Notes under the pieces: generated by a model
The model's input: the letters and a program-made list of their open reading frames with translations, nothing else
Database searches by the model: none
What the model was told of the DNA's origin: nothing
Assembly: GCA_946531435.1 (NCBI GenBank)
Contig: CAMNAO010000004.1
Location: 6,786 to 70,785, forward strand
Length of the DNA stretch: 64,000 nt
Direction: 5' to 3'
Source: an uncultured Clostridia bacterium
Lineage (GTDB): Bacteria > Bacillota > Clostridia > Oscillospirales > Oscillospiraceae
Translations under genes and position numbers: made by a program
In this document: one piece after another, positions 2-27,823 of the stretch
Layout: each line of letters begins with the position of its first letter
Numbering within the stretch: position 1 is the stretch's first letter

Positions 2-565
2 TATGACCGGCTGATTGCCAACATGGATGAGTTTCACCGACGCGGCCTCATTTTCGGTGCCTCCGTCACCGTGACAACGGAGAATCTTCGGGAGGTCAGC
101 TCGGAGGCTTTTCTCAAAAAGCTCTCCGACCGGGGCTGCAAGCTCGTGATCTTTGTGGAGTTCGTGCCCGTGACTGAGCAGGCCAGGGAGCTTGCCCCCG
201 GAGATGAGGAGCGTGAGATTCTGCGCTCCGAGATCGCCCGTCTCCGCTTGGAGCATCCGGAAATGGTATACATCTCCTTCCCCGGGGACGAGAAGGAATC
301 CGGCGGCTGTGTGGCGGCCGGGCGCGGCTTCTTCCACATCAACTCCCACGGCGGCGCGGAGCCCTGCCCCTTCTCCCCCTATTCCGACGTGAATATCAAA
401 AACAGTTCCCTGCGGGAGGCCATGCACTCGCCGCTCTTCATCGCCCTGCGCAGCGGGGACATCCTGCTGGACGACCACGAGGGGGGCTGCGTTCTTTACG
501 AGAAGCGCGCGCAGGTGGAGGCTCTGCTGGCCGGTCGGTCCGATGCCTTCGACCCGATTCCGTGA
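2..565 (+). CDS. radical SAM-family protein, C-terminal part (5' end lies outside the window)
   Basis: The frame is open from nt 2 with no stop before the listed Met at 23, so the gene starts upstream of the window. The Cys/Gly-rich tail GGCVAAGRGFFHINSHGGAEPCPFSPYSD resembles auxiliary-cluster C-terminal regions of radical SAM maturases. Family recalled, not searched. Confidence 0.45.
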   Translation, partial: YDRLIANMDEFHRRGLIFGASVTVTTENLREVSSEAFLKKLSDRGCKLVIFVEFVPVTEQARELAPGDEEREILRSEIARLRLEHPEMVYISFPGDEKESGGCVAAGRGFFHINSHGGAEPCPFSPYSDVNIKNSSLREAMHSPLFIALRSGDILLDDHEGGCVLYEKRAQVEALLAGRSDAFDPIP

Positions 566-582
566 AGCGGTATTTGCATTAT

Positions 583-627
583 CAACAACAGCCATCGGCA
601 GATCACAAACGCCGATGGCTGTTGTTG
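583..627. terminator. strong hairpin between convergent units (17-bp perfect stem, 11-nt loop), no clear U-tract
   Basis: caacaacagccatcggc (583-599) pairs perfectly with gccgatggctgttgttg (611-627). It lies between the + strand radical SAM gene and the end of the minus-strand cluster. Confidence 0.4.
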
Positions 628-1064
628 CTTACACATATTCTTTTTCCTCTGCTCCTCCGTCCACCTGCAGACCGGCTGATGTATAGCCGGTGCGGAGTCT
701 GAAGGGGAAACGTTTGACTGCTTCTATCGCTGATTTTTGAGGGTACTGGTCAACGCGTCTCTGCCTGCAGCTCCTTTTTAAAGGCTTCAAATCGCTTCTC
801 ATCTGACAATGTTGCAAGCAGCCCCCATTACAAAGGCGTTGCCGACGCTCAGAAACATCGTTCCGAAGGCAGCCCCCAAGGCTGTGCCGGTACCGGCGGC
901 GGCACAAAGCAGGAACGCCGGAAGGGAGCCCAGAAGTGCATTGAACCATTTTGTCTTCTTCGGATAGGGCGTGAGGCTTTTGGCAAAAACCTGGAACTGA
1001 ACGCCGATCATCGGCAGCCAAAACAGCACCAGAAGCAGCTGAAGCGGCAGAATGAAGCTGGAAA

Positions 1065-2153
1065 TCAGCGGTTCGCACCTCCCACCGGGGTCTTCCTGTA
1101 TATGAGCTCTCCCGTCTCCAGATTCCTCCGGAACTGAACCATAAAGCTCCAGATGAGGTCGATCTGCTTCGGGGCCTGAATATGGGGCATACCGAGGATC
1201 TGCCCGAATCTGGCAACATTGTCTCCGTTGATATTTTTGTAGTCACCCAACAGAATGTAGCTGTCCTCAAAAGGGCCGCCCCAGGTCTCATGGAGATCCA
1301 GGCCCAGCTTCCTCTTAACGGCATCGTCGGTGGTCTTGGTTAGTTCCACCATCTCTTTCTGGGTCAGCGGCTTGTAGTCCTTGATTTTTGCCACGTGTTC
1401 CATATAGAAGTTGAAGGCGCTTGCGCACTCCTCCGTGTTCAGCGGCCAGTAGTCCCCTCCGTCCTCCGTTCCCCCGATACAAATGATGGGCATCATGAGA
1501 TCGAAGTTTTCCACATAGTGGGACTGCAGCTCAGCATAGGATGGGCCCCGGAAGCTGTTGGGTCCCGGAGTAGGTGCAATGCAGGCGATCTTGTCCGGGT
1601 GGAGCATGGCCAGGCGCTGGGTGGCGCCCTCCCCTCCGGAAAATCCAAAGACGTAAACCCGCTCATAGTCCACGGGATACTCCTTCTCCTTCAAAAAATC
1701 CAGGATCCGCAGAAACTCTCTCTCCACTCGGGGATTGCCGTGGCCCGAGGCCGAGGGGCACACGGTGATGCACTGACCCATACCGGTGAGATGACCGAAG
1801 CCGTAAAACTCAGCGCCGAAGTTGTTCTCTCCACCCCCGTGAAGGCAGTACACCAGCGGAAACCGCTCCCCATCGTTCTGCTCCATCGGGCTCAGGACGG
1901 AAAACCGCATCTGTTCTTCTGTCCTGGCTTCATCGAAGAGCTCTTTCTTGACACCCTGCGAACGCCAGTACTCCAGCACCTCGGGGTTCATCTGGTCGTC
2001 TCCGCTGCCGTCCGGGTCGTTTTCCAGGTAAAACCGGTGCAGCTCTGTAATGCTGCGCCCCAGCTTCGTCTTCGGGAATCCGACAGGATCATAGGTTCCC
2101 TTCGCCCAGGCGTTCTCCAGTCCCGTATTCAGAAAATGATACTCTTTCCTCAT
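1065..2153 (-). CDS. alpha/beta-hydrolase, PHB-depolymerase/LpqC-like esterase, single domain (paralog F)
   Basis: Has LHGGG, the nucleophile elbow GFSGG, and the C-terminal MPH...WSFMVQFRRNLETGE motif shared with five other hydrolases here. The ATG at 2153 follows GGAGAGAAGG; the ORF-track start at 2159 is a TTG. No signal peptide. Confidence 0.75.
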   Translation of the reverse strand: MRKEYHFLNTGLENAWAKGTYDPVGFPKTKLGRSITELHRFYLENDPDGSGDDQMNPEVLEYWRSQGVKKELFDEARTEEQMRFSVLSPMEQNDGERFPLVYCLHGGGENNFGAEFYGFGHLTGMGQCITVCPSASGHGNPRVEREFLRILDFLKEKEYPVDYERVYVFGFSGGEGATQRLAMLHPDKIACIAPTPGPNSFRGPSYAELQSHYVENFDLMMPIICIGGTEDGGDYWPLNTEECASAFNFYMEHVAKIKDYKPLTQKEMVELTKTTDDAVKRKLGLDLHETWGGPFEDSYILLGDYKNINGDNVARFGQILGMPHIQAPKQIDLIWSFMVQFRRNLETGELIYRKTPVGGANR

Positions 2154-2183
2154 GTTCAATCCTTCTCTCCGTCTGCGGTGTGG

Positions 2184-3497
2184 TCACTCCTTGGGCTCCT
2201 TATCCATAATCTTCTCCACAACACGGATGTGGTCGGAGAAGAAGCGCAGGGCCTTGGCGTTCAATAGAGAGTCCGTCAGCCCATCTTTTCCCCCGGCCCT
2301 GCGAATGGCCTCCTCTTCGGAAACTCTCGCCAGCGCCGCGTTCCGTTTCACACTGCTTTCAAGCTCCTGCTCGGAAATGCCAAGGCCGTATTTCCGGATC
2401 AAATGATCGATGGCAATGGAGCGACGGACATGCTTCTCCGCATTGGGGCGGCACATGTCCAGGAATTCGTCCATGGTCTTTCCCTCGTCCTTCAGCAGCT
2501 CCGCCACAGTCTTTCCCTTGCCCGCCGCGGCATTTCGCAGGGCATCCAGGTATTCGTTCAGAACGGTCTCCACCATCACGTCGGGAAGTCTGCAGGTCAC
2601 TGTGGCTTCCAGTGCATCCTCGACGTGCTTCTCAAACATCTCACCGCAATGCCGGTCGTGGCGGTCCTGAATCTCTTTTCGCAGCTTCTCCCGAAACTCC
2701 GCCACCGTGTTGACCCTGCTGTCATGGATCATCTCCCGGCAATATTCATCGGTGCACGCCACCTGTTCACGAGCCCAGACGCCCCTCAGGCGGACCTTGA
2801 GATCCAGAACAAAGCCCCGAATCGCCTCCCGATGAAAGTCCTCCGGCATTGTCAGCTTCAGTGCCAGCTCATCGCCCTTCCTGCGGCCCAGGAGTGCCTC
2901 GTCCAATCCTGCGAAGAGCTGTCCGCTGCCCATGGGAAAGCGGCATTTGTCGGAGTGGTCATACTCAAACCGTTCACCCTGGTGGGTACCCGAGAAGCTG
3001 ATTTCAACGATGTCACCCATCCGGGCCTCCCGGTCGACCTCGTGGACCCACAGATGCTTGCGCATGTAGTCCTCGAGCGCTTCATCCACCTCGGCATCCG
3101 TCGTCACGACCACAGGCTTTTCCACGGTGATGCCCTCAATGCCGAAGGCCGGAAGATCGGGAAAGGTAGTAAACGACGCTTCAAAGCAGAATCCCTCAAG
3201 ATCCCCTCCGCGCACCACTGCGGAGGGTGGAGAGATGGGCGCCAGCCCCTTTTCCGCACAGGCCCGAAGCAGCAGTGCGTCCACCGCTTCTTTCCCGGCG
3301 GTTTTAATCAGCTCTCTGCCGAAAAAATCGGCGGCGGCTTCTATCGGTGCCCCGCCCGCGGGATAGCCGGGAACGGGCTTTTGCCGCTGCAGCGCATCGG
3401 CCGCTCCGGCAAGGAAGGTCCGCCATTCCTCGCCCTCCGTCGTCACCTTCATCGTCACCCGAAAACCATTATCTATTTGAAGGCTTATTAGTTCCAT
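2184..3497 (-). CDS. trigger-factor-like chaperone / FKBP-type PPIase paralog
   Basis: Collinear with trigger factor: N-domain, FKBP-like middle (MGDIVEISFSGTHQGERFEYDHSD...GSGQLFAGLDEALLG), helical C-arm. RBS GAGGAG lies 6 nt upstream. The ribosome-docking signature GFRxGxxP reads GYPAGGAP. Confidence 0.8.
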   Translation of the reverse strand: MELISLQIDNGFRVTMKVTTEGEEWRTFLAGAADALQRQKPVPGYPAGGAPIEAAADFFGRELIKTAGKEAVDALLLRACAEKGLAPISPPSAVVRGGDLEGFCFEASFTTFPDLPAFGIEGITVEKPVVVTTDAEVDEALEDYMRKHLWVHEVDREARMGDIVEISFSGTHQGERFEYDHSDKCRFPMGSGQLFAGLDEALLGRRKGDELALKLTMPEDFHREAIRGFVLDLKVRLRGVWAREQVACTDEYCREMIHDSRVNTVAEFREKLRKEIQDRHDRHCGEMFEKHVEDALEATVTCRLPDVMVETVLNEYLDALRNAAAGKGKTVAELLKDEGKTMDEFLDMCRPNAEKHVRRSIAIDHLIRKYGLGISEQELESSVKRNAALARVSEEEAIRRAGGKDGLTDSLLNAKALRFFSDHIRVVEKIMDKEPKE

Positions 3498-3693
3498 AGA
3501 ATCTCCTCATTTCTATCCTTCGGATACGGCCTGCGGCGCGGAAAAAGCCGGCCGCAGCGGGACCCCCCTATACGGCCGACTTTCCTGATACAGTGCTTCG
3601 TTCCGCAAGCTCCCTTGTCGGTCCCCACGCTCGGGCGGCCGGGTTCTTCCCCTTCTTCTCCGCCGGATCGGCGCCCCGTATTCCCTTTCATAC

Positions 3694-3722
3694 AGGGTAC
3701 ACGATAGCGCAGGTCCTGTCAA
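3694..3722 (-). promoter_or_regulatory. candidate sigma-A promoter (TTGACA-17 nt-TACCCT) ahead of a leader of about 190 nt for the trigger-factor-like gene
   Basis: On the minus strand, TTGACA sits at 3722-3717, followed by a 17-nt spacer and TACCCT at 3699-3694. It lies in a 280-nt non-coding gap inside an otherwise tightly packed cluster. Confidence 0.35.
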
Positions 3723-3777
3723 GCCGGGTCTGCAGGCGTGGGGAGGCGTCTCTCCTGACTGCCAGCGCGTCTGACAT

Positions 3778-5214
3778 TTATTTATAGAGAATCTTATCGA
3801 ACAGCTCGTTCATATGACGGCTGATCCTGCCGTCCAGGTCGTCCGGATGGGTGGTGGAGCTGTAAAAGGTAAAGGTGTCGTGGTCCTTGGCGTTGTTGCT
3901 GAGAAGATAGCCGCCGTTGAACATGGCATCACCGTGGCAGTGGGAAATGACCACCGTCTTTTTGAAGGGGGACTCCTCCTTCATCCTCCACCCGATCTCC
4001 GTATAGGGTTCCCCGGATACGCCGACCCAGGCCACGTCGCCGAAAACGGCGACCTGCATGTGCAGAGGCGATACGCCGTCCGGGTCATAGACCATGGTGC
4101 CCCGGGTCTCCTTCGGCGGCGTCCGGCCGTTCACCAGCAGCTCCGGATACCTTCGGTTGCAAAGATTGTCGGTAATGGACCAGTCCAGGGCGAAATTCGT
4201 ACCCACGTACTTGTGCCGCGGAAGGTTCAGGATATCACCCTCCGTCCTGATCTCAAAGCTGTCCTCGTACTCGGTGATGCTGTTCAAGGTACGGATGGTG
4301 TCGATGCCGTGCTCGCAGCCCAGGGTCATCATATTCTGATAGGCAAAACCAAAGGGCGGGTCAATGGGCTCGTTATAGCCGTCCAGCTCGTACTTGCGCA
4401 GATAGCCCATGGTACAGACGGGGTTGGTATCACCGGAGCTGCCGTTGGTCCAAAGGCAGACGCAGTCATTGCCGAACCTCTTCTCAACATATTCGCTGGA
4501 GACCCCGGGGAAATCCGGAGCGACCTTGTAGCAGCCGTCCACATCCGGGACCTCCGGGCGCAGACTGGTGGGATGGCAGCCGTAGTTTGTGACGGCGGCA
4601 ATCAGCTTGCCCTCCATATCCACAAACTTCATCACCGCCAGGGTCCTGTCCACGGGACCGCGGAAGTTACAACCCTCCATCCAGTGCCCGTCCTCAAACT
4701 GTACGTCACGATTGACGTTGATGTAGCTGTCACCCTCGGCAAACCCGAACTTTGCAGGCTGCAGGCGGGAGATCGCCAGCTCAATGCCCCCGATGACGGC
4801 GGGATGGACCACCTGGTTATAGTAATCGAACTGCAGGGCGTTGGTGGGATTGCGTCCCCATTTGATATGGGTGGAGTGGTTGTGCGTCCACACGCCGAGA
4901 ATATTCTCCGGCGGGATCCCGAAGGTTTCATGAATCTCATTCTTGAATTCGTCGTCCAGGCTCGGCCCTGAATCCAGGTTCAAAAACAGGAATTTCTTCT
5001 TCCCGTCGTCGATCACCACGATGCGGGTGTAGATATCCATGAAGATCCCCACCGTCTTGTAGGGAACCGGCTTCCAGGGAATCGACGGATAGCCGTGAAG
5101 GCCGGTCGTCGGTTTTTCCTTCGGTTGCATTTCCGCTTTGTAGTCCTCCAGCGGGAACATCTCCGCAGGGGGGTTGATGCACATTTTGGCCGCGCCGACT
5201 CTGATTTTTCCCAT
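3778..5214 (-). CDS. neutral/alkaline ceramidase-like amidohydrolase (paralog P1)
   Basis: N-terminus MGKIRVGAAKMCINPP, with His motifs WTHNHS and NYGCHPT plus GSSGD, typical of bacterial neutral-ceramidase N-domain proteins (recalled). RBS GAAGGAGG. No signal peptide. Confidence 0.6.
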   Translation of the reverse strand: MGKIRVGAAKMCINPPAEMFPLEDYKAEMQPKEKPTTGLHGYPSIPWKPVPYKTVGIFMDIYTRIVVIDDGKKKFLFLNLDSGPSLDDEFKNEIHETFGIPPENILGVWTHNHSTHIKWGRNPTNALQFDYYNQVVHPAVIGGIELAISRLQPAKFGFAEGDSYINVNRDVQFEDGHWMEGCNFRGPVDRTLAVMKFVDMEGKLIAAVTNYGCHPTSLRPEVPDVDGCYKVAPDFPGVSSEYVEKRFGNDCVCLWTNGSSGDTNPVCTMGYLRKYELDGYNEPIDPPFGFAYQNMMTLGCEHGIDTIRTLNSITEYEDSFEIRTEGDILNLPRHKYVGTNFALDWSITDNLCNRRYPELLVNGRTPPKETRGTMVYDPDGVSPLHMQVAVFGDVAWVGVSGEPYTEIGWRMKEESPFKKTVVISHCHGDAMFNGGYLLSNNAKDHDTFTFYSSTTHPDDLDGRISRHMNELFDKILYK

Positions 5215-5289
5215 AGGTTCCTCCTTCTTTCACTCTGATCCTTGTCAGTTTTTCTCCGGGAAGGGATCCAAGAGGATCCCTTCTATCGG

Positions 5290-6261
5290 TTAAGGCCGCG
5301 GAAAAATCTTTCCCAGCTCTCCGCAGAAATCGTCGGGGAGCTTCAGCTCCGCAGCGCGAAGAGAGGACTGCAGCTGCTCCACGGTCCTGGGCCCGGAGAG
5401 GACCGCTGAAACCGCGGGATTCCGGAGCACCCAGGCCAGGGCGACGTTGGATTCGCTCTCCCCCAACTGGCCGCAAAGCTCATGATACTTGGTAAGCCTG
5501 GCCCGCTCCGCATCGGACAGCCTGCCGGAGAACTTTTGGGATCTGCCTCCCTGGGCGATGGTGCCGAAGATGCTGCCGGAGAGCATGCCGCCTGAAAGAG
5601 GGCTGTGGACAATGACGCCGATGCCCTTCTCCTTACAGAGGGGAAGCACATCCTTCTCCGCCTCCCTGGCCAGCAGGCTGTAGCGATGCTCCTCCGTAAC
5701 CAGTCCCAGGATCTGCTTTCTGTCCGCGGTGGCCTGGGCGTCGGAAATATTCTCTGCGGTAAAGTTGGAGGAGCCGACGTAGTCGAATTTCCCCCGATAG
5801 AACTCCCGGTACAGCGCCTCCCAGGCCTCGGTCCAGGTGCAGTTGGGGTCGTAACCGTGCAGATACAGGATCTCGACCCTGTCGGTCTGAAGGCGTCTCA
5901 GGCATGCGTCCAGATGACGGCGGATTTTATAGGTGGAATACCCCATCACATCATTGGGCCCGTCATTGGGATCATTCATGGCGTTGAAAATCTTGGTGGC
6001 CAGGACGGTCTTCTCCCGGCGGCCGCCGCCAAGGGCAAACCATCTGCCGATGATCTCCTCGGTCAGTCCCTTCCGGTTGAAGCCGGTGTCCGGCCGAAAG
6101 CCGTACATGTTGGCGGTGTCAAAGAAGTTGATGCCCGCCTCCAGGGCCGCGTCCATGATGCGGCAGGCCTCCTTCTCATCGGTGGTGGGTCCGAAATTCA
6201 TGGTGCCGAGGGCGACCCGGCTGATTTTCATACCCGTACGGCCAAGATAAGTATATTCCAT
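5290..6261 (-). CDS. aldo/keto reductase
   Basis: MEYTYLGRTGMKISRVALGTMNFG is a typical AKR N-terminus. Its ATG overlaps the TGA of the upstream hydrolase by 1 nt (TGATG), suggesting translational coupling. The ORF-track start at 6264 is a TTG. Confidence 0.9.
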   Translation of the reverse strand: MEYTYLGRTGMKISRVALGTMNFGPTTDEKEACRIMDAALEAGINFFDTANMYGFRPDTGFNRKGLTEEIIGRWFALGGGRREKTVLATKIFNAMNDPNDGPNDVMGYSTYKIRRHLDACLRRLQTDRVEILYLHGYDPNCTWTEAWEALYREFYRGKFDYVGSSNFTAENISDAQATADRKQILGLVTEEHRYSLLAREAEKDVLPLCKEKGIGVIVHSPLSGGMLSGSIFGTIAQGGRSQKFSGRLSDAERARLTKYHELCGQLGESESNVALAWVLRNPAVSAVLSGPRTVEQLQSSLRAAELKLPDDFCGELGKIFPRP

Positions 6262-8006
6262 CAATAAAGCTCCTCAATTTTATGCGTCTGGGGATCTCTG
6301 CGGAAGCGTCGCAGGAAATCCCAGGAGAGTGTGCACATCTTCGCCGTCACCGTATGGGGCATGTTCTGCTGCCGGATCAGCCGGACGTGCTTCTTCCCGT
6401 CCACATTGACAAAGTCGCAGATATAGTGCTCGATCCCGTCCGCCCACAGGGTACGGAATTCATCGGCGGCCACGCAGGTGGTCCTCTGCGTGTAATCCTC
6501 GCTGTCAAAGGCCGCCAGGATCTCCTCCTCACTCTTCACCGGCAGGCGGTAATTGCGCATCATCTGCTGCCACTGGGGCACCCAGCGATTCCGCTTGTCC
6601 TCCTCGTTCTTGGGGAAGCCGGATTCACAGAGGCCGGTGATGCAGACCGTGGGCACGTCATAGTTCGCGATGTTGTAGTCCTTTGTGTAATCCGGCCGGG
6701 CGTTCATCCCTCCGGAGACGTAACTGAAGCCCAGGAGGGCGACGGCGGCCGGGAAGTCGGGGTTCCGGTCCGCCATGGCGAAGGAGAAGTATCCGTCATG
6801 GCTGTGGCCCGTCAGGTAGACGCGGCTGAGATCAAAGCAGAACTCCTCGGCATTGTTTTTCACGATGTCGATGGCCCGGTCATTGCTGACCACGTCCTCA
6901 AGGACGAAGAACACCAGCGCGCATTCGCCCTGGGCCGCAATATCCAGCCACTCTCCCAGGTAGCTGTGGGCCGTCACCGCCAGATGCTCGTTGCCCTCGT
7001 AGACCTCCTGAAGCACCAGGACCACGGGAAGCTTCGTCCTTTCCTCATATTGCTGGCGGGGGCAGGCGATGATATACCTCTCGCCCAGCTCATTGAAACG
7101 GATGGCGTAGATGAGCCCCTTTTTGCGCATCTCCTCCTGGAAGGCCGGGTCATTCACGGTGTCATATTTGTATTCCAGCATAAGGCCGTCCACCATATGC
7201 TTTCCCACCTCGGAATGGACGAACCATTCCCGGTCAAACCGTCCCTCGTTCATCCCGTAGGTCATGACCAGGCCGCGGCCCAGGCTGTCACAGTTGCCCC
7301 AGCGCCCCCGGATGTTAAGGACCGGCAGCTTCAGATCCCCGAAGTACTCGATGAGGCTGTCGGGGTCCACCGGATTGCCCGCCTCATCCTTGAACGCAAG
7401 GCCGGGAACCGAGGAAAGAGGCCCCTCCTCCAGCTGGGCGGAAACGTCCATATACATATGGGGGATATCACAGGGGAAGAGGATGGAGAACTCCTGGATG
7501 ATATTAAAGTAGATCATATCATAGCAGGGGAACTGGTCCACCAGAATCACCAGAATAAAATCCATGCTGCGCTTCAGCATCTCCACCTTGTCCCAGTGGC
7601 GCTTGAGGGCCCGCATCGTCCAGCGGGGATCCTTCTCATCCTCGCAGCCGAAATACATGTAGACAGGGAGCTTTTTCCACTCGTCGATGGCCTTCTGGGG
7701 GCAGAGGCAGATCCAACAGTGCTCCGGTATGTCGCCGGTTCCACCCTGGCCGGTGCATAAATAGTGAAGTCCGGCCGCATTGAGCTCCGCCACAATGCCG
7801 GGATCGTCGATTCCGTGGGTCTTATGGCGATAGAGCGGGTGCTGATGCAGGTCACCGCTGTATGCGTAGGTCGGCTCGTAATCGCTGGGCTGGACCTTCG
7901 CGTTCTCCTGCATATGCCGGATGAGATGGCCCAGGGGGGCCACACGGTCCTTCCAGTACTCGGTCTGCCAGAGCTCAATGTTGGGATAGCTGTAGTATTT
8001 GTTCAT
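6261..8006 (-). CDS. tandem pseudo-esterase + esterase alpha/beta-hydrolase (paralog A)
   Basis: Start MNKYYSYPNIELW follows GGGAGG. The C-terminal half has FDLSRVYLTGHSHDG (nucleophile elbow) and NMPH...WDFLRRFRRDP. The N-terminal half aligns to it, but the elbow reads CDIPHMYMDVS. No signal peptide. Confidence 0.75.
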   Translation of the reverse strand: MNKYYSYPNIELWQTEYWKDRVAPLGHLIRHMQENAKVQPSDYEPTYAYSGDLHQHPLYRHKTHGIDDPGIVAELNAAGLHYLCTGQGGTGDIPEHCWICLCPQKAIDEWKKLPVYMYFGCEDEKDPRWTMRALKRHWDKVEMLKRSMDFILVILVDQFPCYDMIYFNIIQEFSILFPCDIPHMYMDVSAQLEEGPLSSVPGLAFKDEAGNPVDPDSLIEYFGDLKLPVLNIRGRWGNCDSLGRGLVMTYGMNEGRFDREWFVHSEVGKHMVDGLMLEYKYDTVNDPAFQEEMRKKGLIYAIRFNELGERYIIACPRQQYEERTKLPVVLVLQEVYEGNEHLAVTAHSYLGEWLDIAAQGECALVFFVLEDVVSNDRAIDIVKNNAEEFCFDLSRVYLTGHSHDGYFSFAMADRNPDFPAAVALLGFSYVSGGMNARPDYTKDYNIANYDVPTVCITGLCESGFPKNEEDKRNRWVPQWQQMMRNYRLPVKSEEEILAAFDSEDYTQRTTCVAADEFRTLWADGIEHYICDFVNVDGKKHVRLIRQQNMPHTVTAKMCTLSWDFLRRFRRDPQTHKIEELY

Positions 8007-8062
8007 AAAAACCTCCCTGTTTATCAGAATCATTCTGTCCGGTTCCCGGTTTTTACGGGTCC

Positions 8063-9877
8063 TCAGTACAGTTCAAGGATCTTTCCGGTTTTTTCGTCCC
8101 GGGCAAAGCGCTTTAAAAAGCTCCAGGCCAGGTCGATCATGGAGGGTGTCGGCAGATGGGGGACGTTCTCGATCCCCACCAGCCGGAAATGAAACTTTCC
8201 CTCCCGGTTTTTGATATCCGCGATATAGTGGTGTACGCCGTCCAGGTACAGGATATCCGTGCGGTCGGCAGGCACGCCGATCCTTCTTGTGGCCGTATCG
8301 GGACTGGAGAGGGAGGCAATGATCTCCTCACGGCTCCTCATGGGGCAATTCATTGCCCGCAGCCTGCGCTGCCAGCCGCGGATCCGCTCCTCCACCCCAT
8401 CCGCCGGATTGTTTCCCGCGCCGCGGCCGCCGACGCGGCGGCCCGTGTGCTCCCCGGCGACGGGGTAATAGAGGCCCATCTCACACATGCCCGTCATGTT
8501 GATGAGGGGGATATCCTCATCGGCGGTGGCGAGGATCTTCTTTTCATCCGTTTCGGTCCCGGGGACGGCGCTGGTTTCGGCCAGCCAGGGGGCGTTGCCC
8601 AGGGTCGCGAGCCCCGCCAGCAGGGTGGGGTGATGGCGGGCGAACTCAAAAGCGTACATCCCGTTGTGGGAGTGCCCCATGATGTACATCCGGCTCCTGT
8701 CCACAGGAATCTTAGCCGCCGCCTCCTCCAGAATGTCCGTCAAAAGTTCGTTGGAGGCGGGATCCTCCAACACGAAAAACAGGGCGATAAACTCCCCCGC
8801 GGCGGCCAGTTTTACCGCTTCGTAGCAGTAATTGATCGAAGTGACGGCCAGATGCTCATTGGCGCTGCCCACCTCCTGCATCACAATCATGAGGGGCAGC
8901 TTCTCCGCCCCCTCCTCCAGGGCAGACTTGGGCGTAAAGGTCAGCCAGCGGTTGCCGGCGGTCTCATGGAGCAGCAGCTGAACGCCCATGCGATCCCAGT
9001 ATTCCGCAAAGGCCGGATCATCGCAGAAGTCATAGTCATGGTCCATGGCGATCCCCTGCATCATTCTCTCTCCGGTCATACTGTGCAGGAACCGCTGTCT
9101 GTCATACTGCGTGCTGCTGAAATCATCCTGCAGCACCTGTTTCCGGTTCAGGCAGTAGAGGGAGGGCCAGCGATTGCTGATATCCAGCGCGGGGATTTCC
9201 AGGGCGCCGAAAGAAATCAGGCAGGCGTCCGGATCCTCCACGGCGGCTCCGTCTCCGTCACGATAGGTATAACCGGGAACCTCCGCGATTTTGACGCCCA
9301 ATTCACGGAAGAGGGAGCAGTCCAGATACAGGCGGTCACGGTCGATGGGATAGCGGACCGAAGCCTCCTGCAGGATCTCTACGAAATACCCCCCTGTATC
9401 CGGCCCCTCCACCGCGAAAAACAGGAGCAAGGTATCCTTCGACGCGGCGATCATGCGTAGATAGGCGTCGTAATCCGCCAGCATGCGCATCAGCCAGTAG
9501 GGGTCGGAATAGTTCTCCTTATGGTAGACCACCAGAGTCTTCAGCTTGTTCACCTGGTCCCCCAGCGCGGTTTCCGGGCCGCATACGCACCAGCGAATCC
9601 CACCCATGGAACGGCAGGAATAGAAGATCCCCTGACGGTGCCAATACTCCGTGACATCCGGGGCGGCGACACTGTTGGTCTTGCGGGTATAGCAATCCAG
9701 GGTTTTGCAGTCGTCCCCCCTCAGTCCGTCCACAGGTTTTGTATACTCCCAGAAGCCCGTGCTGTCCTTTTCCCCCAGCCACTGGACCAGAGGATAGAGA
9801 GGGCTGTCCTGACGGGTCCCCCAGGGGCCGTCGTTCCACAGCTCATAGTTCGGATAACGATAATACCGATTTGTCAC
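8063..9877 (-). CDS. tandem pseudo-esterase + esterase alpha/beta-hydrolase (paralog B)
   Basis: GTG start follows GAGGAGGGG. N-terminus MTNRYYRYPNYELW. Active half has PVDRSRMYIMGHSHNG; degenerate half has PIDRDRLYLDCS. C-terminus NVPH...WSFLKRFARDEKTGKILELY. Confidence 0.75.
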   Translation of the reverse strand: MTNRYYRYPNYELWNDGPWGTRQDSPLYPLVQWLGEKDSTGFWEYTKPVDGLRGDDCKTLDCYTRKTNSVAAPDVTEYWHRQGIFYSCRSMGGIRWCVCGPETALGDQVNKLKTLVVYHKENYSDPYWLMRMLADYDAYLRMIAASKDTLLLFFAVEGPDTGGYFVEILQEASVRYPIDRDRLYLDCSLFRELGVKIAEVPGYTYRDGDGAAVEDPDACLISFGALEIPALDISNRWPSLYCLNRKQVLQDDFSSTQYDRQRFLHSMTGERMMQGIAMDHDYDFCDDPAFAEYWDRMGVQLLLHETAGNRWLTFTPKSALEEGAEKLPLMIVMQEVGSANEHLAVTSINYCYEAVKLAAAGEFIALFFVLEDPASNELLTDILEEAAAKIPVDRSRMYIMGHSHNGMYAFEFARHHPTLLAGLATLGNAPWLAETSAVPGTETDEKKILATADEDIPLINMTGMCEMGLYYPVAGEHTGRRVGGRGAGNNPADGVEERIRGWQRRLRAMNCPMRSREEIIASLSSPDTATRRIGVPADRTDILYLDGVHHYIADIKNREGKFHFRLVGIENVPHLPTPSMIDLAWSFLKRFARDEKTGKILELY

Positions 9878-9899
9878 GCAGTTTCCCCTCCTCAGCGCT

Positions 9900-11078: not shown

Positions 11079-11111
11079 GGCATCTCCTTTTTGAGAGGCC
11101 TCGCCGCCCCA

Positions 11112-12074
11112 TCACAAGCGGGGCGCCGCGATCTCCAGAATTTCTTTCTCCGACGGCAGGGCCGGGATTGCTCCGATTTTCGTCGTCGTCAGGGCGCCCG
11201 CGGCGCAGGCAAGGGTGACGAAACGGTTCATGGTTTTTTCATCCAGCACAGCGATCTCAGCAGCGCTGAATCCTTTCACACAGTGGTGGAAGGTGCCGGT
11301 AAAGCTGTCCCCCGCGCCGGTGGTATCCCGTACAGAGACCCGGAAGGGCTCCACCCTGCCGCTGCACACGCTGTTTTTGTAGACGGCGCCGTCGCCGCCC
11401 AAAGTCACCAGCACCGCAGCAGGGCCCATGGCCTTCAGAATCTCCGCTCCCGCAAAGGGATCGTCGGTTCCCGTCATGAGCCGCAGCTCCTCCTCATTGA
11501 CCTTCAGAATATCGCAGAGGGGGACGGCCTTAAGAAGCTCTTCCCTGGCGCGGGCTGCATCACTCCATATCGTCTCCCGGTAATTGGGGTCATAGCTGAC
11601 CACCTTGCCCCCAGCACGGGCGTATGCAGCCGCTTTCAGTGTAGCCTCGGCACAGGGGCCCTCAGTGAGAGATACCCCGCCGAAGTGGAAGATCTCACAG
11701 GCGTCGATGACCCCTTTGTCCACCTCTTCCCAGGTGAGCATCATATCCGCCGAGGGATTGCGATAGAAGCTGCAGCTGCGCTCCCCGTTCTCATCCAGGG
11801 AGACCACGGAGAGGGTGGTTGGGTACTCCTTCGAGAAGATGAGGGCACTGGTGTCGATCCCACCCTCTCTCATGTTCTCCTCCAGGTAATGGCCGAAGAC
11901 GTCGTCCCCCACCATGCCGATGAGGGCGACCCTTCCGCCCAGCCTGGCGTTCATGGCAAGGCAATTTGCCGGAGCCCCGCCGGGATTGCGCGCCATCAGC
12001 TTGATGCCCAGCTCATTGACGCCGCATTCCGTCAGGTCGATCAGGCTCTCGCCCAGAGCAACTACGTCGTACAT
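11112..12074 (-). CDS. PfkB-family sugar kinase, fructokinase-like
   Basis: ALGESLIDL N-terminus, and the DTTGAGDSF anion-hole/catalytic motif near the C-terminus. Confidence 0.8.
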   Translation of the reverse strand: MYDVVALGESLIDLTECGVNELGIKLMARNPGGAPANCLAMNARLGGRVALIGMVGDDVFGHYLEENMREGGIDTSALIFSKEYPTTLSVVSLDENGERSCSFYRNPSADMMLTWEEVDKGVIDACEIFHFGGVSLTEGPCAEATLKAAAYARAGGKVVSYDPNYRETIWSDAARAREELLKAVPLCDILKVNEEELRLMTGTDDPFAGAEILKAMGPAAVLVTLGGDGAVYKNSVCSGRVEPFRVSVRDTTGAGDSFTGTFHHCVKGFSAAEIAVLDEKTMNRFVTLACAAGALTTTKIGAIPALPSEKEILEIAAPRL

Positions 12075-16234: not shown

Positions 16235-16250
16235 GGGTGCCTCCTTGTCG

Positions 16251-22028: not shown

Positions 22029-22048
22029 TTTTGTCCTCAATAACTCTT

Positions 22049-22172: not shown

Positions 22173-23156
22173 TCAGGCCAGGGTCTGTTTGGCGGCTGTC
22201 GCCCTTGTCTCCTCCCAGTAATGGCAGGCCACGCAGTGGCCGGGGGCGACCTCCTGCAGTTGGGGCGTCTCATTTTCGCACTTTTCGCGGCTCATCCAGC
22301 AGCGGGGCGCGAAACGGCAGCCGGGTTTGGGATTGATCGGACTTGGCACATCGCCCTCCAGGACAATCCTCTTGGTTTTGTTGGCAAAGTCGATGCGGGG
22401 CACAGCGGAAAGAAGCGCCGTGGAATAGGGGTGCAGCGTATTGGCAAAGATCTCATCCGTCGGCGCAATCTCAACGATCTGCCCGAGATACATGACCGCG
22501 ACACGATTGGAGATGTGACGCACCACGCTCAGATCGTGGGAAATGAACAAATAACTGAGGCCCATTTGCTTCTGAAGCTTCATCAGCAGATTGATGATGA
22601 TCGCCTGAACCGAGACGTCAAGGGCGGAGACCGGCTCGTCACAGATGATGAATTTCGGGTTCAGCGCCAGTGCTCTCGCAATGCCGGTAAGCTGACGCTT
22701 ACCGCCATCCATCTCATGGGGGAACATTTCAAGCACATAAGGCTCCAGCCCCACAAGATCGGCCATCTCACGAACCTTTTCCTTCAATTCCTTTCCACGA
22801 TACATATGATGGATCTGGTACGGGTCGGAGAGAATGGCTTCCACAGACTCTCTGGGGTTTAAGGACGAATACGGATCCTGGAAAATGATCTGCATTTTTT
22901 TATGAAGCTCGCGCCGCTGGGCCTTGTTGTACTCAAGAATGTTCTCACCCTCGAAGTACACCTTGCCGTCGGTCGCTTTCAGGAGCTGGATCAGCACGTT
23001 GCCGATCGTGCTTTTTCCGCAGCCGGACTCGCCAACGAGGCCAACCGTCTCGTTGGGCATGATGTCGAAAGAGACGTCGTCCACCGCGTGGAGCTTGCCC
23101 TTGCCGGAGACATTAAAATACATCTTCAGATGTTCTACTTTTACCAAAGGCTCCAT
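22173..23156 (-). CDS. ABC transporter ATP-binding protein (OppF/DppF-like)
   Basis: Walker A GESGCGKST, signature LSGG-like region, and the C-terminal oligopeptide-type extension with Cys residues. Confidence 0.9.
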   Translation of the reverse strand: MEPLVKVEHLKMYFNVSGKGKLHAVDDVSFDIMPNETVGLVGESGCGKSTIGNVLIQLLKATDGKVYFEGENILEYNKAQRRELHKKMQIIFQDPYSSLNPRESVEAILSDPYQIHHMYRGKELKEKVREMADLVGLEPYVLEMFPHEMDGGKRQLTGIARALALNPKFIICDEPVSALDVSVQAIIINLLMKLQKQMGLSYLFISHDLSVVRHISNRVAVMYLGQIVEIAPTDEIFANTLHPYSTALLSAVPRIDFANKTKRIVLEGDVPSPINPKPGCRFAPRCWMSREKCENETPQLQEVAPGHCVACHYWEETRATAAKQTLA

Positions 23157-23157
23157 C

Positions 23158-24171
23158 TTAATCCTCCATTACCCAGCAAGCAGCCTGATGTGATTCCGTA
23201 ATCTTTGTCATAGCAGGGGCCTCTGTCTTGCACTTTTCGGTGCAGTGGCTGCAGCGCGGATGGAACTTGCAGCCCTGGGGCAGATTCTTCGCGTTGGCCA
23301 CAAGCCCGGGAATCGCTTGAAGCTCCTCGCGGGGTCCGGTCAGATTGGGAATTGCATGCACCAGTCCATAGGTGTACCAGTGTCTGGGATTTGTGAACAC
23401 CTCCTCAACGGTGCCATATTCCACGATCTCTCCGCCATACATGACGGCCACCTGCTGACACAGCTCAGCTACGATCCCCAGGTTGTGGGTGATCATCACA
23501 AGAGATGTGGAGAACTCCTTCTGCAGCTTCTTCATCAGCTCCAGAATCTGCGCCTGAATGGTTACGTCAAGGGCCGTAGTCGGCTCATCGCAGAGGAGCA
23601 GCTCGGGATTGCACGCCAGCGCAGCGGCAATACCCACACGCTGTCTCATTCCGCCGGAGAACTGATGGGGGTAGTCATCCAGCCGATATCTGGCGATGCC
23701 GACAGTTTCCAGCAGCTGGGCAGTGCGTTCCGCCGCCTCTCTCTTTCCCAGGCCCTCATGCTTCATGATCCCCATGGCAATCTGGTGACCTACAGTAAAC
23801 AGGGGATTCAGGGAAGAAAGCGGATTCGCGAAAACCATGGAAATGGATTTGCCGCGGATGTGTTCCATCTCCCTATCGCTCTTTTTAAAGATGGACTCGC
23901 CGTGGAAGAAAATATCGCCGTCCGTAACGAAGGAGACCCGATCAGGAAGCAAATTCATGATGGAGAGGGCGGTCGTGGTTTTTCCCGCTCCGGATTCGCC
24001 CACGATTCCAAGAGCCTCACCTTTGTTGATCACAAGGTTTACGCCGTTTACCGCCTTCGCCACGGCGCCTCCCGCACGATATTCCACATGGAGATTCCTG
24101 ATTTCCAACAATGCGTCTGGATGCTCGGGAGTATACGCAGTCCGGATTATTCCATTTTTTCTCATATTCAA
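23158..24171 (-). CDS. ABC transporter ATP-binding protein (OppD/DppD-like)
   Basis: Walker A GESGAGKTT, signature FSGGMRQR, Walker B LLLCDEPTTALD. There is a 1-nt gap to the next ATPase gene. Confidence 0.9.
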   Translation of the reverse strand: MNMRKNGIIRTAYTPEHPDALLEIRNLHVEYRAGGAVAKAVNGVNLVINKGEALGIVGESGAGKTTTALSIMNLLPDRVSFVTDGDIFFHGESIFKKSDREMEHIRGKSISMVFANPLSSLNPLFTVGHQIAMGIMKHEGLGKREAAERTAQLLETVGIARYRLDDYPHQFSGGMRQRVGIAAALACNPELLLCDEPTTALDVTIQAQILELMKKLQKEFSTSLVMITHNLGIVAELCQQVAVMYGGEIVEYGTVEEVFTNPRHWYTYGLVHAIPNLTGPREELQAIPGLVANAKNLPQGCKFHPRCSHCTEKCKTEAPAMTKITESHQAACWVMED

Positions 24172-24187
24172 CGCTCACAATCCGACA

Positions 24188-25042
24188 TTAGTCTGTATTC
24201 TTCGGGTCAAAGACGTCGCGAATACCGTCGCCCAGGAAATTGAAGCCCAGAACCGTAAGAGCAAGAGCAATACCGGGGAAAACAACGATCCACGGACAGC
24301 TGCTGAGATACGTCCGGCCGTCAGCGATCATGTTGCCCCAGGTCGGCGTGGGAGGCGCGATGCCGAGGCCAAGATAGGACAGATTGGTCTCCACCAGGAT
24401 CGTCCCCCCAAGGTGCCCGCTGGCGTCGATCAAGAGCTGCGTAAGCGTATTGGGGAAAAGCTCTTTCCAGATGATACGCCAATCGCTGGCGCCAAGGACT
24501 CTGGAAGCGGAAATGAATTCCTTATTCTTCATTGCAAGGACTGCGGAACGGACCAGACGGGCTGTGCCGACCCAGCCCGAAACGGTCAAAGTGAAGATCA
24601 GGACGCCCATACTGTTGCCAAGGAAGGCAATGATGGTCAGAGCCATCAGCATTTGAGGCAGCGCAGCAAGGATATCGCAGATCCGCATCAGCACCATATC
24701 AATAATGCCGCCGTAAAACGCGGAAACCATGCCCACAAGGGCGCCCAGGGCCATACTGATAACGGTAACGATCACCGCGATTCTGAGAGAGATCCTTCCC
24801 CCGACAAAGAGGCGGCTTAGAACATCACGCCCCAAAGCATCCGTGCCGAAAGGGTGTCCCTGCAGGCCGTCAGTAAAGTAATCCGGGGGGATCAGTCTCT
24901 CTCTCAGGGAACCCACCTCGGGATTCCAGTGAATCCAGAGCTTGGCCGAAGAGCATAGAAGGATCAGAATCAGCAGAAGGCAGAAGCCGATCATAAAGAG
25001 TCTGTTTTTGCGCATGCGACGCAGAACAGTTGATAATTTCAT
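24188..25042 (-). CDS. ABC transporter permease (OppC/DppC-like)
   Basis: Multi-pass membrane protein with an EAA-like loop (SASRVLGASDWRIIWKELFPN). Confidence 0.9.
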   Translation of the reverse strand: MKLSTVLRRMRKNRLFMIGFCLLLILILLCSSAKLWIHWNPEVGSLRERLIPPDYFTDGLQGHPFGTDALGRDVLSRLFVGGRISLRIAVIVTVISMALGALVGMVSAFYGGIIDMVLMRICDILAALPQMLMALTIIAFLGNSMGVLIFTLTVSGWVGTARLVRSAVLAMKNKEFISASRVLGASDWRIIWKELFPNTLTQLLIDASGHLGGTILVETNLSYLGLGIAPPTPTWGNMIADGRTYLSSCPWIVVFPGIALALTVLGFNFLGDGIRDVFDPKNTD

Positions 25043-25060
25043 ATCGCGTTCTCCCTTCTC

Positions 25061-25981
25061 TCAGTTGAAGGTAATTCTCGGGTCGATAATCGTATATACG
25101 ATATCGGCCAGCATGTTGCAGACAACAAGCAGTGCGGCGGTGAACAGCAGGAAGGACTGAACCAGCTGATAGTCTCGCTGGTTGATTCCGGTGATCAGCG
25201 CCTGTCCCATGCCGGGCAGATTGAAGATGTTCTCAACCACGACGGCGCCGGAAACCAACCGGCCGATCTGACCGCCAATGTTCGTTACGATGGGCAGCAG
25301 AGCGTTCTTCAGTGCGTACTTGAAATAGGTCTTATTCCGGGAGATGCCGCGAGCGCGGGTGGCGGTGACATAGTCCTCCCGGAGGACGTCCACCATGCCG
25401 GAGCGCATCAGACGGGTCTGGTGCGCCGCGGTGCCGAAGCCCACACAGAGGCACGGCATGATCAGGCTCCTGGCTCCCTGGACGCCTTGGACCGGCAGCC
25501 AGCCCAGCTTCACAGCGAAGATCAGAATCAACATGAAGCCCAGCCAGACCGTGGACATGGACTGACCCACCACAGCAAAGAACATAGCGAAAAAGTCAAC
25601 GCCGCTCCCCTGATGGATGCCGGCGATGACCCCAAGGATTATTGAGAAGACGCAGGCCCAGAGGATGCCCAGAACGCTGATGCGCAGCGTCTGCGGAATA
25701 CGGATGGCAAACAGTTCAGATACAGGCATGGAAAACGCCCAGGAATACCCCAGATCACCATGAAGCACGTTGTTCATATAGGTGAGGTACTGCTGAACGA
25801 CAGGCTTGTCAAGGCCCATGCGTACGCGCATATCCTCCACTTCCTGGTCTGAGGCAAGCTCACCGGCAAGCATTCTCGCCGGATCGGCGCCATCCAAACG
25901 GACCAGAGCAAAGGAGAAGATTGAGATCGCGATGAGGACGATCACTGACGCGATCAATCGTTTACCCAATTGTCTAAGCAT
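25061..25981 (-). CDS. ABC transporter permease (OppB/DppB-like)
   Basis: Typical N-terminus MLRQLGKRLIASVIVL and EAA loop YVTATRARGISRNKTYFKYALKNAL. Confidence 0.9.
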   Translation of the reverse strand: MLRQLGKRLIASVIVLIAISIFSFALVRLDGADPARMLAGELASDQEVEDMRVRMGLDKPVVQQYLTYMNNVLHGDLGYSWAFSMPVSELFAIRIPQTLRISVLGILWACVFSIILGVIAGIHQGSGVDFFAMFFAVVGQSMSTVWLGFMLILIFAVKLGWLPVQGVQGARSLIMPCLCVGFGTAAHQTRLMRSGMVDVLREDYVTATRARGISRNKTYFKYALKNALLPIVTNIGGQIGRLVSGAVVVENIFNLPGMGQALITGINQRDYQLVQSFLLFTAALLVVCNMLADIVYTIIDPRITFN

Positions 25982-26086: not shown

Positions 26087-27790
26087 TCAGTCGTTGACGA
26101 CGATGGCGTGGCAGTCCAGCACGGTGGCGTTGTGGTTCAGAATGTTGGTAACATTTTTCTGGCAGGCAAAGATCTTCTGCGGCGCGTACAGGTACAGGTT
26201 GGGCTGGCACTCGTCAGCCTCGATCTCGAAGATCCTTCCAAGCAGCTCGGTCTGCTTCTCGGGAGAGACGGTGATCTGCAGCTCCTGGCAGAGGCCTCTC
26301 AGCTCCTCATTCTGGTAACCGGTGTTGAACTTGTCGTTGCCGATAACCTCGGGATAGGTCAGTCTCTGGTAAGGTGCGGAGGCACCGATGTTGGCCAGAA
26401 CAATGTCGAAGTCACGGGCGTCACGGGCCGCGTCATACAGGGAGACATCCAGGGGCTCCAGCTTGACGTTGATGCCCGCCTCCTGCCACATCATCTGCAG
26501 GGCCTGAGCAACTTCGTTGCCGTTGGAGACCGTAGACAGGGTATATACCAGTCTGAACTCACGTCCGTCATAGTTGGCCTTCTGCAGGAACTCTTTGGCC
26601 TTGTCCAGGTTGTACTCATACTTGGGGGCATCCTCATAGCCGTAGTAACCGGGCTGTGCGCCGCAGGTGCTGGGAACCGCAAAGCCATCCATGAGGGAGG
26701 AAACCAGCAGTTCACGGTCGATGGCGTAGTTGAGCGCACGGCAGAGGTCCTTGTTCTCGAAGGCGTCACCGGCGCCACAGGCCAGCTGCAGGAAGACCTG
26801 GTTGGCGGAGGGAAGCACGTTGACAGAGATGGAATCGATGCCGCTGAGATTGCCAAGCTCGGAGGTGGGGACGTTGTCGATGATGTCGACCTCACCGGTC
26901 TTCAGGGAGGCGATACGGGTGGTCTCCTCGGGGGAGTTCTCGAAGGTCAGATACTTGACGTTGGTATAGTAGCCGGTCTTCCTGTAGCCCCAATAGCCGT
27001 TCTCATCCTCTCTCAGCTTCAGAGTGACCTTGGAGTTGGTCAGGTCCACCTCGTCATAGGTGTAGGGACCGGATCCCACGGGGCACTGCCAGTAGGCGTC
27101 CCAGCCCATGGACTCGATGGTCTCAACGGGCATGATCTGAAGGCTGGCGCCGAAGTTGGCGACGAAGGCAGGCATGGGCTTGGTGAACTTGATGCGGATG
27201 GAATACTCACCGGTCTCCTCGATGCTGTCCAGATAAGGTCTCCAGGCCTTTACAATGCCGTCGGGGTAATACTCGCTGGCGCGAAGGTTCTCCATGGCCC
27301 ACCAGAGGTCATGGGCCGTCATATGAACGCCGTTGGTGAAATACACATCGTCGCGGATGGTGACGTCGCAGGTCAGATAGTCGTCGGACAGCTGGTAGTC
27401 GGTGGCAAGATAGTTCTCATACTCAAAATTCTCAGGGTTCACCCAGATCGGGCCGTCATAAACACAGTACATCTGGGATCCCAGGAAGTCACCGCCGGTG
27501 GCGGTCCACTTCTGAAGCGTGTGAGCCGTGGAGCCCATGTGATAGACCACGGTCTTGTCGGCGTCCGCTTCGGTCCAGGTCTCCTCCTTGGCGGCCGCCT
27601 GCTCCATGGTCACGCTCTGGGTCGTGCCGTCGCTGACTGGAGCTGTAGCGGGCTTATTCCCGGAGGGCTCGGACGTCGATGGCGTTCCGGTCTCCCCCTT
27701 GCCGCCGCAAGCCGCGAGAGCCATAGCGCTAATGGCCGCGGTGCTGAGGCCGGCAACCTTCAGGAAGTCTCTACGGGTTAAGGTCTTCAT
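26087..27790 (-). CDS. ABC transporter substrate-binding lipoprotein, family 5 (peptide/nickel/oligosaccharide type)
   Basis: ATG at 27790 follows AAAGGAG. The signal MKTLTRRDFLKVAGLSTAAISAMALAACGG carries a twin-arginine consensus (TRRDFLK) and a lipobox (LAAC). The mature part is typical of family-5 SBPs. Confidence 0.9.
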   Translation of the reverse strand: MKTLTRRDFLKVAGLSTAAISAMALAACGGKGETGTPSTSEPSGNKPATAPVSDGTTQSVTMEQAAAKEETWTEADADKTVVYHMGSTAHTLQKWTATGGDFLGSQMYCVYDGPIWVNPENFEYENYLATDYQLSDDYLTCDVTIRDDVYFTNGVHMTAHDLWWAMENLRASEYYPDGIVKAWRPYLDSIEETGEYSIRIKFTKPMPAFVANFGASLQIMPVETIESMGWDAYWQCPVGSGPYTYDEVDLTNSKVTLKLREDENGYWGYRKTGYYTNVKYLTFENSPEETTRIASLKTGEVDIIDNVPTSELGNLSGIDSISVNVLPSANQVFLQLACGAGDAFENKDLCRALNYAIDRELLVSSLMDGFAVPSTCGAQPGYYGYEDAPKYEYNLDKAKEFLQKANYDGREFRLVYTLSTVSNGNEVAQALQMMWQEAGINVKLEPLDVSLYDAARDARDFDIVLANIGASAPYQRLTYPEVIGNDKFNTGYQNEELRGLCQELQITVSPEKQTELLGRIFEIEADECQPNLYLYAPQKIFACQKNVTNILNHNATVLDCHAIVVND

Positions 27791-27823
27791 GTGCAATCTC
27801 CTTTTTCATTTTTTCGGTACCGG

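Follow-up and report, generated by a model that had tools for sequence, protein, structure and literature searches.

A full-length trigger factor paralog with a degenerate signature loop in a Clostridia catabolic island, and the Tat genes beside its relatives

Trigger factor (TF) is considered an almost universal chaperone that exists in one copy, and a single copy is present in 97.4% of TF-containing genomes (PMC11559001). The rare extra homologs usually lack the N domain, which is the whole ribosome-binding domain, and extra copies face a constraint on dosage that is linked to ribosome binding (Wan et al. 2024, PMC11559001). Among the 390 multi-copy TF genomes, 209 of which are Clostridia, 367 keep only one motif-bearing copy (PMC11559001). 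The gene considered here lies in a 64,000-nucleotide (nt) stretch of contig CAMNAO010000004.1 (assembly GCA_946531435.1) from an uncultured Clostridia bacterium (Oscillospiraceae), and this whole stretch is called the window. At 2184..3497 on the minus strand it encodes a full-length TF paralog of 437 amino acids (aa), identified through its open reading frame (ORF), Pfam, TIGR00115, and AlphaFold2/Foldseek.

The closest described systems are PceT and RdhT of Desulfitobacterium and Dehalobacter. PceT is not known to possess the N-terminal ribosome-binding domain. It binds to the twin-arginine signal peptide of PceA, its client, before export by the Tat (twin-arginine translocation) route (PMC10624902, PMC8905343). 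The window TF and PceT/RdhT are all TF homologs whose genes lie in accessory clusters and not at the tig locus. PceT binds a Tat signal, and the clade to which the window TF belongs is tied to the Tat pathway by genome context. There are also differences. PceT/RdhT sit in rdhA/rdhB clusters, whereas the window ORFs and neighbours that were scanned revealed no dehalogenase domain. The window TF retains its N domain (Trigger_N profile positions 9-143 of 144), which is folded in the structural model. PceT/RdhT serve one redox enzyme, whereas the clade is linked to translocase genes and a NapF-like iron-sulfur (FeS) protein, and the candidate clients of the window TF are a binding lipoprotein or cytosolic hydrolases. 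By analogy, the window TF would work most like PceT/RdhT, though it is neither in an rdh cluster nor without an N domain.

The window TF shares its three-domain architecture and predicted fold with canonical TF (Tig, TIGR00115, E. coli 1W26) and passes the equivalog cut-off of that family. However, canonical TFs read GFRKGKxP, score 408-444 bits, and are encoded next to clpP/clpX, whereas the window TF reads GYPAGGAP, scores 217 bits, and is encoded elsewhere. Its clade also differs from canonical TF in being multi-copy and fast-evolving. The N-truncated TF duplicates of Myxococcus and others (PMC11559001) are, like the window TF, extra copies without a ribosome-binding motif. Those duplicates lost the whole domain, whereas the window TF lost the motif by point substitution and kept the domain. 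TorD, DmsD, and NapD would be comparable in the proposed job, the cytosolic binding of Tat precursors or signals, but are unrelated in fold. SlyD shares only the FKBP domain with the window TF. A literature search for TF homologs encoded with tat genes found nothing beyond PceT/RdhT of the rdh systems.

The trigger factor paralog and its signature loop

The window gene encodes an intact, full-length TF homolog with three domains. The ORF at 2184-3497 on the minus strand has an ATG start, a TGA stop, and 437 uninterrupted codons, and 11 contigs, drawn from several assemblies of gut metagenomes, encode the identical protein. All three Pfam domains exceed their cut-offs. On the minus strand, these are the N-terminal (ribosome-binding-type) domain (Trigger_N, PF05697; aa 10-143, 3069..3470), the FKBP-type peptidyl-prolyl isomerase domain (FKBP_C, PF00254; aa 156-226, 2820..3032; 34.1 bits vs. 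a cut-off of 21.1), and the C-terminal arm or substrate cradle domain (Trigger_C, PF05698; aa 264-417, 2247..2708; profile positions 1-157 of 162). The protein scores 217.2 bits with TIGR00115 (tig), for which the equivalog cut-off is 180.2. An AlphaFold2 model, made from the clade alignment, has a mean predicted local distance difference test (pLDDT) of 90.9. Its best PDB matches in Foldseek are the full-length TFs 2vrh, 1w26, and 3gty, with template modelling (TM) scores of 0.67-0.70, and the modelled N domain matches 1oms with a target-normalised TM of 0.73. The FKBP and C-terminal arm regions had been described from the sequence as intact, and the Pfam scores, the model, and the structural matches bear this out. 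Within the FKBP region, the clade-specific LFAGLDEA stands where E. coli TF has IPGFEDG.

The signature loop is a different matter. At aa 44-51 (3345..3368, minus strand), the degenerate GYPAGGAP is found instead of GFRxGxxP. In the HMMER alignment it stands exactly opposite GFRKGKVP of E. coli TF (1w26) and Vibrio cholerae TF. The substitutions, in E. coli numbering, are R45 to P, K46 to A, and K48 to G, so three basic residues are exchanged; the preliminary description had reported that both basic residues of GFRxGxxP are lacking. The loop matches neither the GFRxGxxP signature nor the relaxed GxRxG test that has been applied to TF copies (PMC11559001). In the model it lies between helices 23-39 and 52-59. 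An E. coli TF mutant with FRK changed to AAA loses ribosome binding, and for this reason the window TF would be expected to bind the ribosome weakly or not at all. Such reduced binding fits the work on dosage constraint (PMC11559001).

The loss of the basic residues belongs to the window copy and not to the whole clade, because most members keep GYRAGKAP; some sister members read GYRKGKAP. Thus, the statement that the docking signature has been lost holds for this protein but fails as a clade trait. K46 is replaced almost always across the clade. R45 is lost in the window copy (P), L021/P0015 (P), L010 (K), and P0013 and P0077 (both E), where L and P numbers are handles for loci and proteins. 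Eroded loops elsewhere include GYPDGGAP in L021 and GYEAGTAP in P0013, and P0073, P0074, and P0075 have lost the loop by deletion or replacement. In a neighbour-joining (NJ) tree without support values, the window copy and L021 gained GYPxGGAP independently, as their sisters read GYRKGKAP and GFRAGxAP. A degenerate loop with GxRxG absent occurs in 7 of 36 clade members vs. 1 of 127 canonical-range TFs (Fisher p = 1e-4). Erosion of the motif within the clade is recurrent and convergent, and the docking loop is expendable there.

Many members do keep GxRxG, which would place their genomes among the rare genomes with several TFs carrying the ribosome-binding motif (23 of 390; PMC11559001). Since the clade keeps the N domain and erodes the docking loop piecemeal, its members are natural intermediates for a test of the dosage constraint.

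The clade and its copy number

The relatives of the window TF were explored through two kinds of search. A word-indexed search gave about 22 clusters with 37-46% identity to the window TF, followed by a gap and then canonical TFs at no more than 29%. An exhaustive search of 1.84 billion representatives with the clade profile gave about 20 clusters (at 50% identity), from 679 down to about 300 bits. Canonical TFs scored no more than 280 bits in the same search and read GFRKGKAP almost invariably. The window TF scores 612.7 bits on the clade profile and groups with P0002-P0021 and P0064-P0079. With TIGR00115, clade members score 190-273 bits vs. 408-444 for canonical TFs. The clade forms a single group apart from the canonical outgroups in the NJ tree. 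The window TF and the clade have 29 invariant and about 50 near-invariant positions in common, which are concentrated in the FKBP domain.

The source of the clade is gut or rumen Clostridia metagenome-assembled genomes (MAGs) throughout. When one genome was scanned for each GTDB species (185,579 representatives), 11 loci in 9 MAGs were recovered. These MAGs are labelled Oscillospiraceae, Lachnospiraceae, or Clostridiales, and their GC contents are 43-58%. When L012 and L017 are compared, the TFs are 76% identical and the neighbouring genes are 87-96% identical, mostly 91-96%. By these comparisons, this is a small, fast-evolving TF clade of gut and rumen Clostridia. A search of IMG/VR viral contigs for clade members gave none. 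In L026, genes for a Y1 transposase and a phage-type integrase (9449-11331) are directly downstream of the TF paralog, and a phage capsid-like gene (137-1231) is near the Tat-TF module in L024. These neighbours are a hint that the TF modules are mobile.

The preliminary description had placed this TF homolog outside the usual tig-clpP-clpX context, and this is correct, as Pfam scans that covered almost all major ORFs of the 64-kb window revealed no clpP, clpX, or lon. No second TF was found in the window either, when all ORFs of at least 50 aa were searched with the clade and canonical-TF profiles; only 2184-3497 was returned. Two clade copies each are present in CALWYM01 (L009 and L014) and JAJPXG01 (L010 and L016). 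The window contig is ENA ERZ28612959 scaffold_568, and L019 is scaffold_947 of the same sample. L019 has a GC content of 58.3% and correlates with the window in tetranucleotide composition (r = 0.983; another part of the window contig gives 0.974). Because L019 comes from the same sample and correlates this closely, the window organism probably has at least two clade members. The TF of L019 (P0009, 7001-8311) is 40% identical to the window TF, reads GYRKGKAP, and scores 189.8 bits with TIGR00115. Its FKBP domain is degenerate, with GYEELF in place of GSGQLF, and Pfam FKBP_C was not detected. This is the reverse of the pattern in the window copy, and the two sequences suggest complementary degeneration of two paralogs. 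Elsewhere in the genome of the window organism, a canonical tig very likely exists.

Tat genes, proposed role, and alternatives

The most frequent neighbours of the clade TFs are tat genes. A tat module adjoins the TF paralog in L007, L008, L010, L012, L015, L017, L021, and L024, and in L022 it is 4.3 kb from the TF gene. Thus, 9 of 18 distinct loci, which were gathered from the GTDB species-representative scan and from further contig look-ups, are Tat-linked. These loci represent four gene orders, with no more than 55% TF identity between groups. The module encodes a TatB-like protein, TatA (TIGR01411, 62.6 bits vs. a cut-off of 53.9), TatC (TIGR00945, 174 bits vs. a cut-off of 132.7), and a multi-[4Fe-4S] NapF-like polyferredoxin of 330-400 aa. 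In the first gene order, the FeS gene is on the opposite strand from tatB-tatA-tatC-TF. The second is TF-tatB-tatA-tatC-FeS, the third is TF-FeS-tatB-tatA-tatC, and in the fourth, TF is followed by four genes and then by FeS-tatB-tatA-tatC. With intergenic gaps of 41-169 nt in the TF-tat loci, the module is the commonest and most tightly linked neighbour of clade TFs. Since Tat-linked loci fall on all deep branches of the NJ tree, the linkage is most simply explained as an ancestral trait of the clade. In L022, one co-directional cluster contains a substrate-binding protein (SBP) with a twin-arginine (RR) signal, OppBCDF, a metallo-beta-lactamase (MBL) fold protein, a PhzA/B-like gene, and TF. 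These are followed by an FGGY kinase, a second MBL protein, a 2,4-diacetylphloroglucinol (DAPG) hydrolase, the FeS protein, TatB, TatA, and TatC.

The FeS protein is always encoded with tatB-tatA-tatC next to the TF paralog. Its genes are located at 7871-8857 in L021, 15623-16609 in L022, 6706-7908 (minus strand) in L007, 3446-4648 (minus strand) in L024, about 10034-11338 in L010, 13522-14682 in L012, about 3820-4977 in L015, and 10268-11428 in L017. It has no N-terminal signal and contains an invariant internal twin-arginine-like motif, SRRxL..F (SRRxLFxF), which is preceded by Met in three of the eight sequences. Its C-terminal half can be aligned with the N-terminal end of NapF/NapG, and no curated family was matched. 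The FeS protein may be a cytosolic maturation factor for Tat substrates or a signal mimic.

Proteases are also encoded near the module. A gene for an Rce1-like CAAX protease directly follows TF in L011 (11334-11957) and L016 (2472-3095), and follows the TF-tat-FeS block in L012 (14687-15307) and L017 (11433-12056). This arrangement would fit an insertion or deletion of the tat-FeS block between TF and the CAAX protease gene. A gene for an HtrA-like PDZ protease is next in L012, L015, and L017. The window also has an Rce1-like gene (52339-53397), which is far from TF.

One Tat-type precursor, and only one, is encoded in the window. This is the SBP_bac_5 lipoprotein at 26087..27796 (minus strand), which has a consensus twin-arginine signal (TRRDFLK ... 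LAACGG lipobox) and scores 17.1 with TIGR01409 vs. a cut-off of 16.7, in agreement with its earlier description as a Tat-type binding protein. Its N terminus reads MHMKTLTRRDFLKVAGL...LAACGG and its signal peptide is MHMKTLTRRDFLKVAGLSTAAISAMALAAC. The Opp-type ABC importer that goes with it, with two permeases and two ATPases, is encoded at 22173..25981 (minus strand) and was recognized by homology to the L022/L014 transporter genes that flank TF paralogs. SBPs with RR signals are also near the TF paralog in L014, L019, and L022, with 23-27% identity among them. The loci that have such an SBP and no tat genes are the window, L014, and L019.

Because its docking residues are lost and its relatives usually stand beside a private Tat machine, the window TF is probably a specialised off-ribosome chaperone. 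A PceT-like role, as an off-ribosome holdase for Tat-routed or island-encoded clients, is on balance the favoured reading. Weak or absent docking would allow the protein to escape the dosage constraint on extra ribosome-binding TFs. With ribosome binding reduced, it would act post-translationally, as a holdase or foldase for the proteins of its own island. The first-choice client would be the SBP precursor (26087-27796). The window TF could hold this precursor export-competent until a Tat translocase encoded elsewhere takes over, as PceT does for PceA. The probably co-transcribed esterase and other large hydrolases would be second-choice clients.

Several observations weigh against this role. 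The other 9 of the 18 clade loci have no tat genes within the sequence examined. Neither tat genes nor the FeS partner were found in the window or in the extensions of its 76-kb contig (L001 and L027) by tblastn and hidden Markov models (HMMs) from the L007, L010, L017, L020, and L021 genes. The sole match in the window was a weak, generic ferredoxin (46186-46488). The SBP gene lies 22.6 kb from the TF gene, and the immediate operon partner of TF encodes a signal-less esterase and no Tat substrate. RR-type signals may simply be a habit of the binding proteins of this lineage. The loss of ribosome binding is read from three residues in an otherwise intact N domain, and other contacts might suffice. 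Lastly, the canonical tig of the same genome is inferred rather than observed. The parallel with PceT, which had been proposed in the preliminary description, therefore stands in part. It gains strong comparative support from the clade-level linkage to tatB-tatA-tatC, and it is weakened by the window itself, where tat genes are lacking, the N domain is kept, and the hydrolases are signal-less.

The absence of tat genes from the window would also be expected if the protein were a cluster-dedicated cytosolic folding helper with no Tat role, and if the Tat linkage of its relatives were ancestral history left behind. Its clients would be the signal-less hydrolases, that is, the esterase, the ceramidase-like protein, the alpha/beta hydrolases of 580-620 aa, and the double MBL protein. 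The esterase gene is only 30 nt away and TF is inside a 34-kb same-strand catabolic run. In addition, the distant clade member of L026 (38% identity) is beside four tandem ceramidase-like paralogs and an MBL gene, and esterase and MBL genes are neighbours in L021 and L022. However, the families of hydrolase neighbours differ between loci, whereas the tat module is the most frequent and tightest neighbour, and there is no sign that the hydrolases are hard to fold. A purely cytosolic role of this kind is considered rather unlikely.

It is much less probable that the window TF is the organism's only housekeeping TF, which has drifted away from clpP/clpX and docks through other contacts. The protein does pass the TIGR00115 equivalog cut-off, its N-domain fold is intact, the 64-kb window holds no second TF, and the canonical tig has been deduced rather than seen. 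These points are outweighed by several others. TF is single-copy in nearly all genomes and canonical-range matches nearly always read GFRKGKAP, whereas this clade is multi-copy in two MAGs and probably in the window organism. The clade members have about half the TIGR00115 bits of canonical TFs and evolve faster than adjacent genes, and their docking loop has been eroded or deleted repeatedly. A clade found in only 9 of 185,579 species representatives, with a GC range this broad, is also a poor candidate for a housekeeping TF. Finally, a decaying duplicate en route to loss, with no specific function, is highly improbable, since its eroded signature and its TIGR00115 score (the second-lowest of seven clade members scored, with only P0009 lower) are set against an intact frame of 437 codons, a confident three-domain model, an identical protein on 11 contigs of different samples, the positions conserved across the clade, a good ribosome-binding site, and an operon-like position.

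Beyond the PceT-like role of the single protein, a broader proposal can be made only tentatively. The TF paralog, the NapF-like polyferredoxin, and TatB-TatA-TatC could together form an undescribed, self-contained export module of gut Clostridia that travels with catabolic islands. It could service Tat-signal SBPs and perhaps, by hitch-hiking, signal-less hydrolases. In that case, the window copy would be a derivative uncoupled from both the ribosome and the tat genes, and it would represent a second route round the TF dosage constraint, by point loss of docking residues and not by deletion of the N domain. The window copy alone is modest, and the TF-Tat-polyferredoxin module at the level of the clade is the more interesting result. 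Through the tight tat linkage, the PceT precedent of a TF-like protein that serves as a Tat proofreading chaperone reaches beyond organohalide respirers to gut Clostridia, and beyond a single redox enzyme to a partnership at the level of the translocase. The clade also flags uncharacterised catabolic islands of the gut and rumen, with ceramidase-like, MBL, and polyhydroxybutyrate (PHB)-depolymerase-like proteins, that may need a private chaperone.

Neighbouring genes and the catabolic island

The gene downstream of TF, at 1065..2153 on the minus strand and 30 nt after the TF stop, encodes a PHB-depolymerase-like esterase of 362 aa with no signal peptide. It has its own Shine-Dalgarno sequence and is preceded by GGAGAGAAGG. 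The esterase gene and TF are probably co-transcribed. Upstream, at 3778..5214 (minus strand), is the gene for a cytosolic neutral-ceramidase-like hydrolase of 478 aa (Pfam PF04734, Ceramidase_alk, 36.6 bits). The reported position of TF between an esterase and a ceramidase-like gene is thus confirmed.

The TF gene has a good ribosome-binding site and an operon-like position. Its 280-nt intergenic leader contains a strong, terminator-like hairpin followed by five U residues (3542..3580, minus strand), which lies about 45 nt ahead of the start codon. The leader RNA folds at -86.6 kcal/mol (z = -2.3). A promoter-like site, TTGACA / 17 nt / TACCCT, is upstream of the hairpin, near 3715-3687. No riboswitch or other leader RNA upstream of TF was matched in Rfam, either at the gathering threshold or at E<=1. 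The hairpin could serve the upstream gene as a terminator, or it could be an attenuator that limits TF dosage. It is speculation that it may hold TF expression low, which would fit the dosage constraint. Long antisense ORFs of 300-600 aa overlie the minus-strand genes, for example 2403-3491, 3814-4971, and 6282-7760 (all plus strand), and they even give BLAST matches to antisense ORFs of homologous loci. As genes they were rejected, because they are artefacts of high GC and conserved coding sequence.

The genes at 1065-35372 on the minus strand form a same-strand run of about 34 kb, which is one catabolic island. In addition to the esterase, TF, and hydrolases, it encodes an aldo-keto reductase, a PatB-type C-S lyase, a PfkB kinase, a zinc-dependent alcohol dehydrogenase, a double MBL protein (585 aa), a 7-bladed lactonase, the Opp-type importer, two ROK regulators, an M28 peptidase, and a MATE exporter. 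Four paralogous proteins of 578-620 aa, 28-53% identical, are encoded at 6261-8033, 8063-9877, 20280-22142, and 29377-31113 (all minus strand). They have only faint alpha/beta-hydrolase or PHB-depolymerase matches in the C-terminal half and all share the conserved motif NRYYxYPNxELW at the N terminus. They lack both a signal peptide and a Pfam family.

The immediate neighbours of the window TF are not conserved around its GTDB relatives, where only families recur. The clade is embedded in catabolic islands again and again. Recurring hydrolase families are found in the window, L014, L019, L021, L022, and L026, and no twin-arginine or other signal peptide was found on the hydrolases of the window or related loci. 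MBL genes are near TF in L014, L019, L021, and L022. The PHB-depolymerase-like esterase of L021 is 34% identical to the protein encoded at 14936-16477 in the window. In L026, four tandem ceramidase-like genes by TF encode proteins that are 33-35% identical to those of the window at 3778-5214 and 17619-19043. Signal-less ceramidase-like paralogs are encoded in the window at 3778-5214, 17619-19043, and 16251-17600 (minus strand) and in L026 at 420-6132, and just one or two of them reach the threshold of Pfam Ceramidase_alk. They appear to be an uncharacterised family of cytosolic amidases that expands in these islands.

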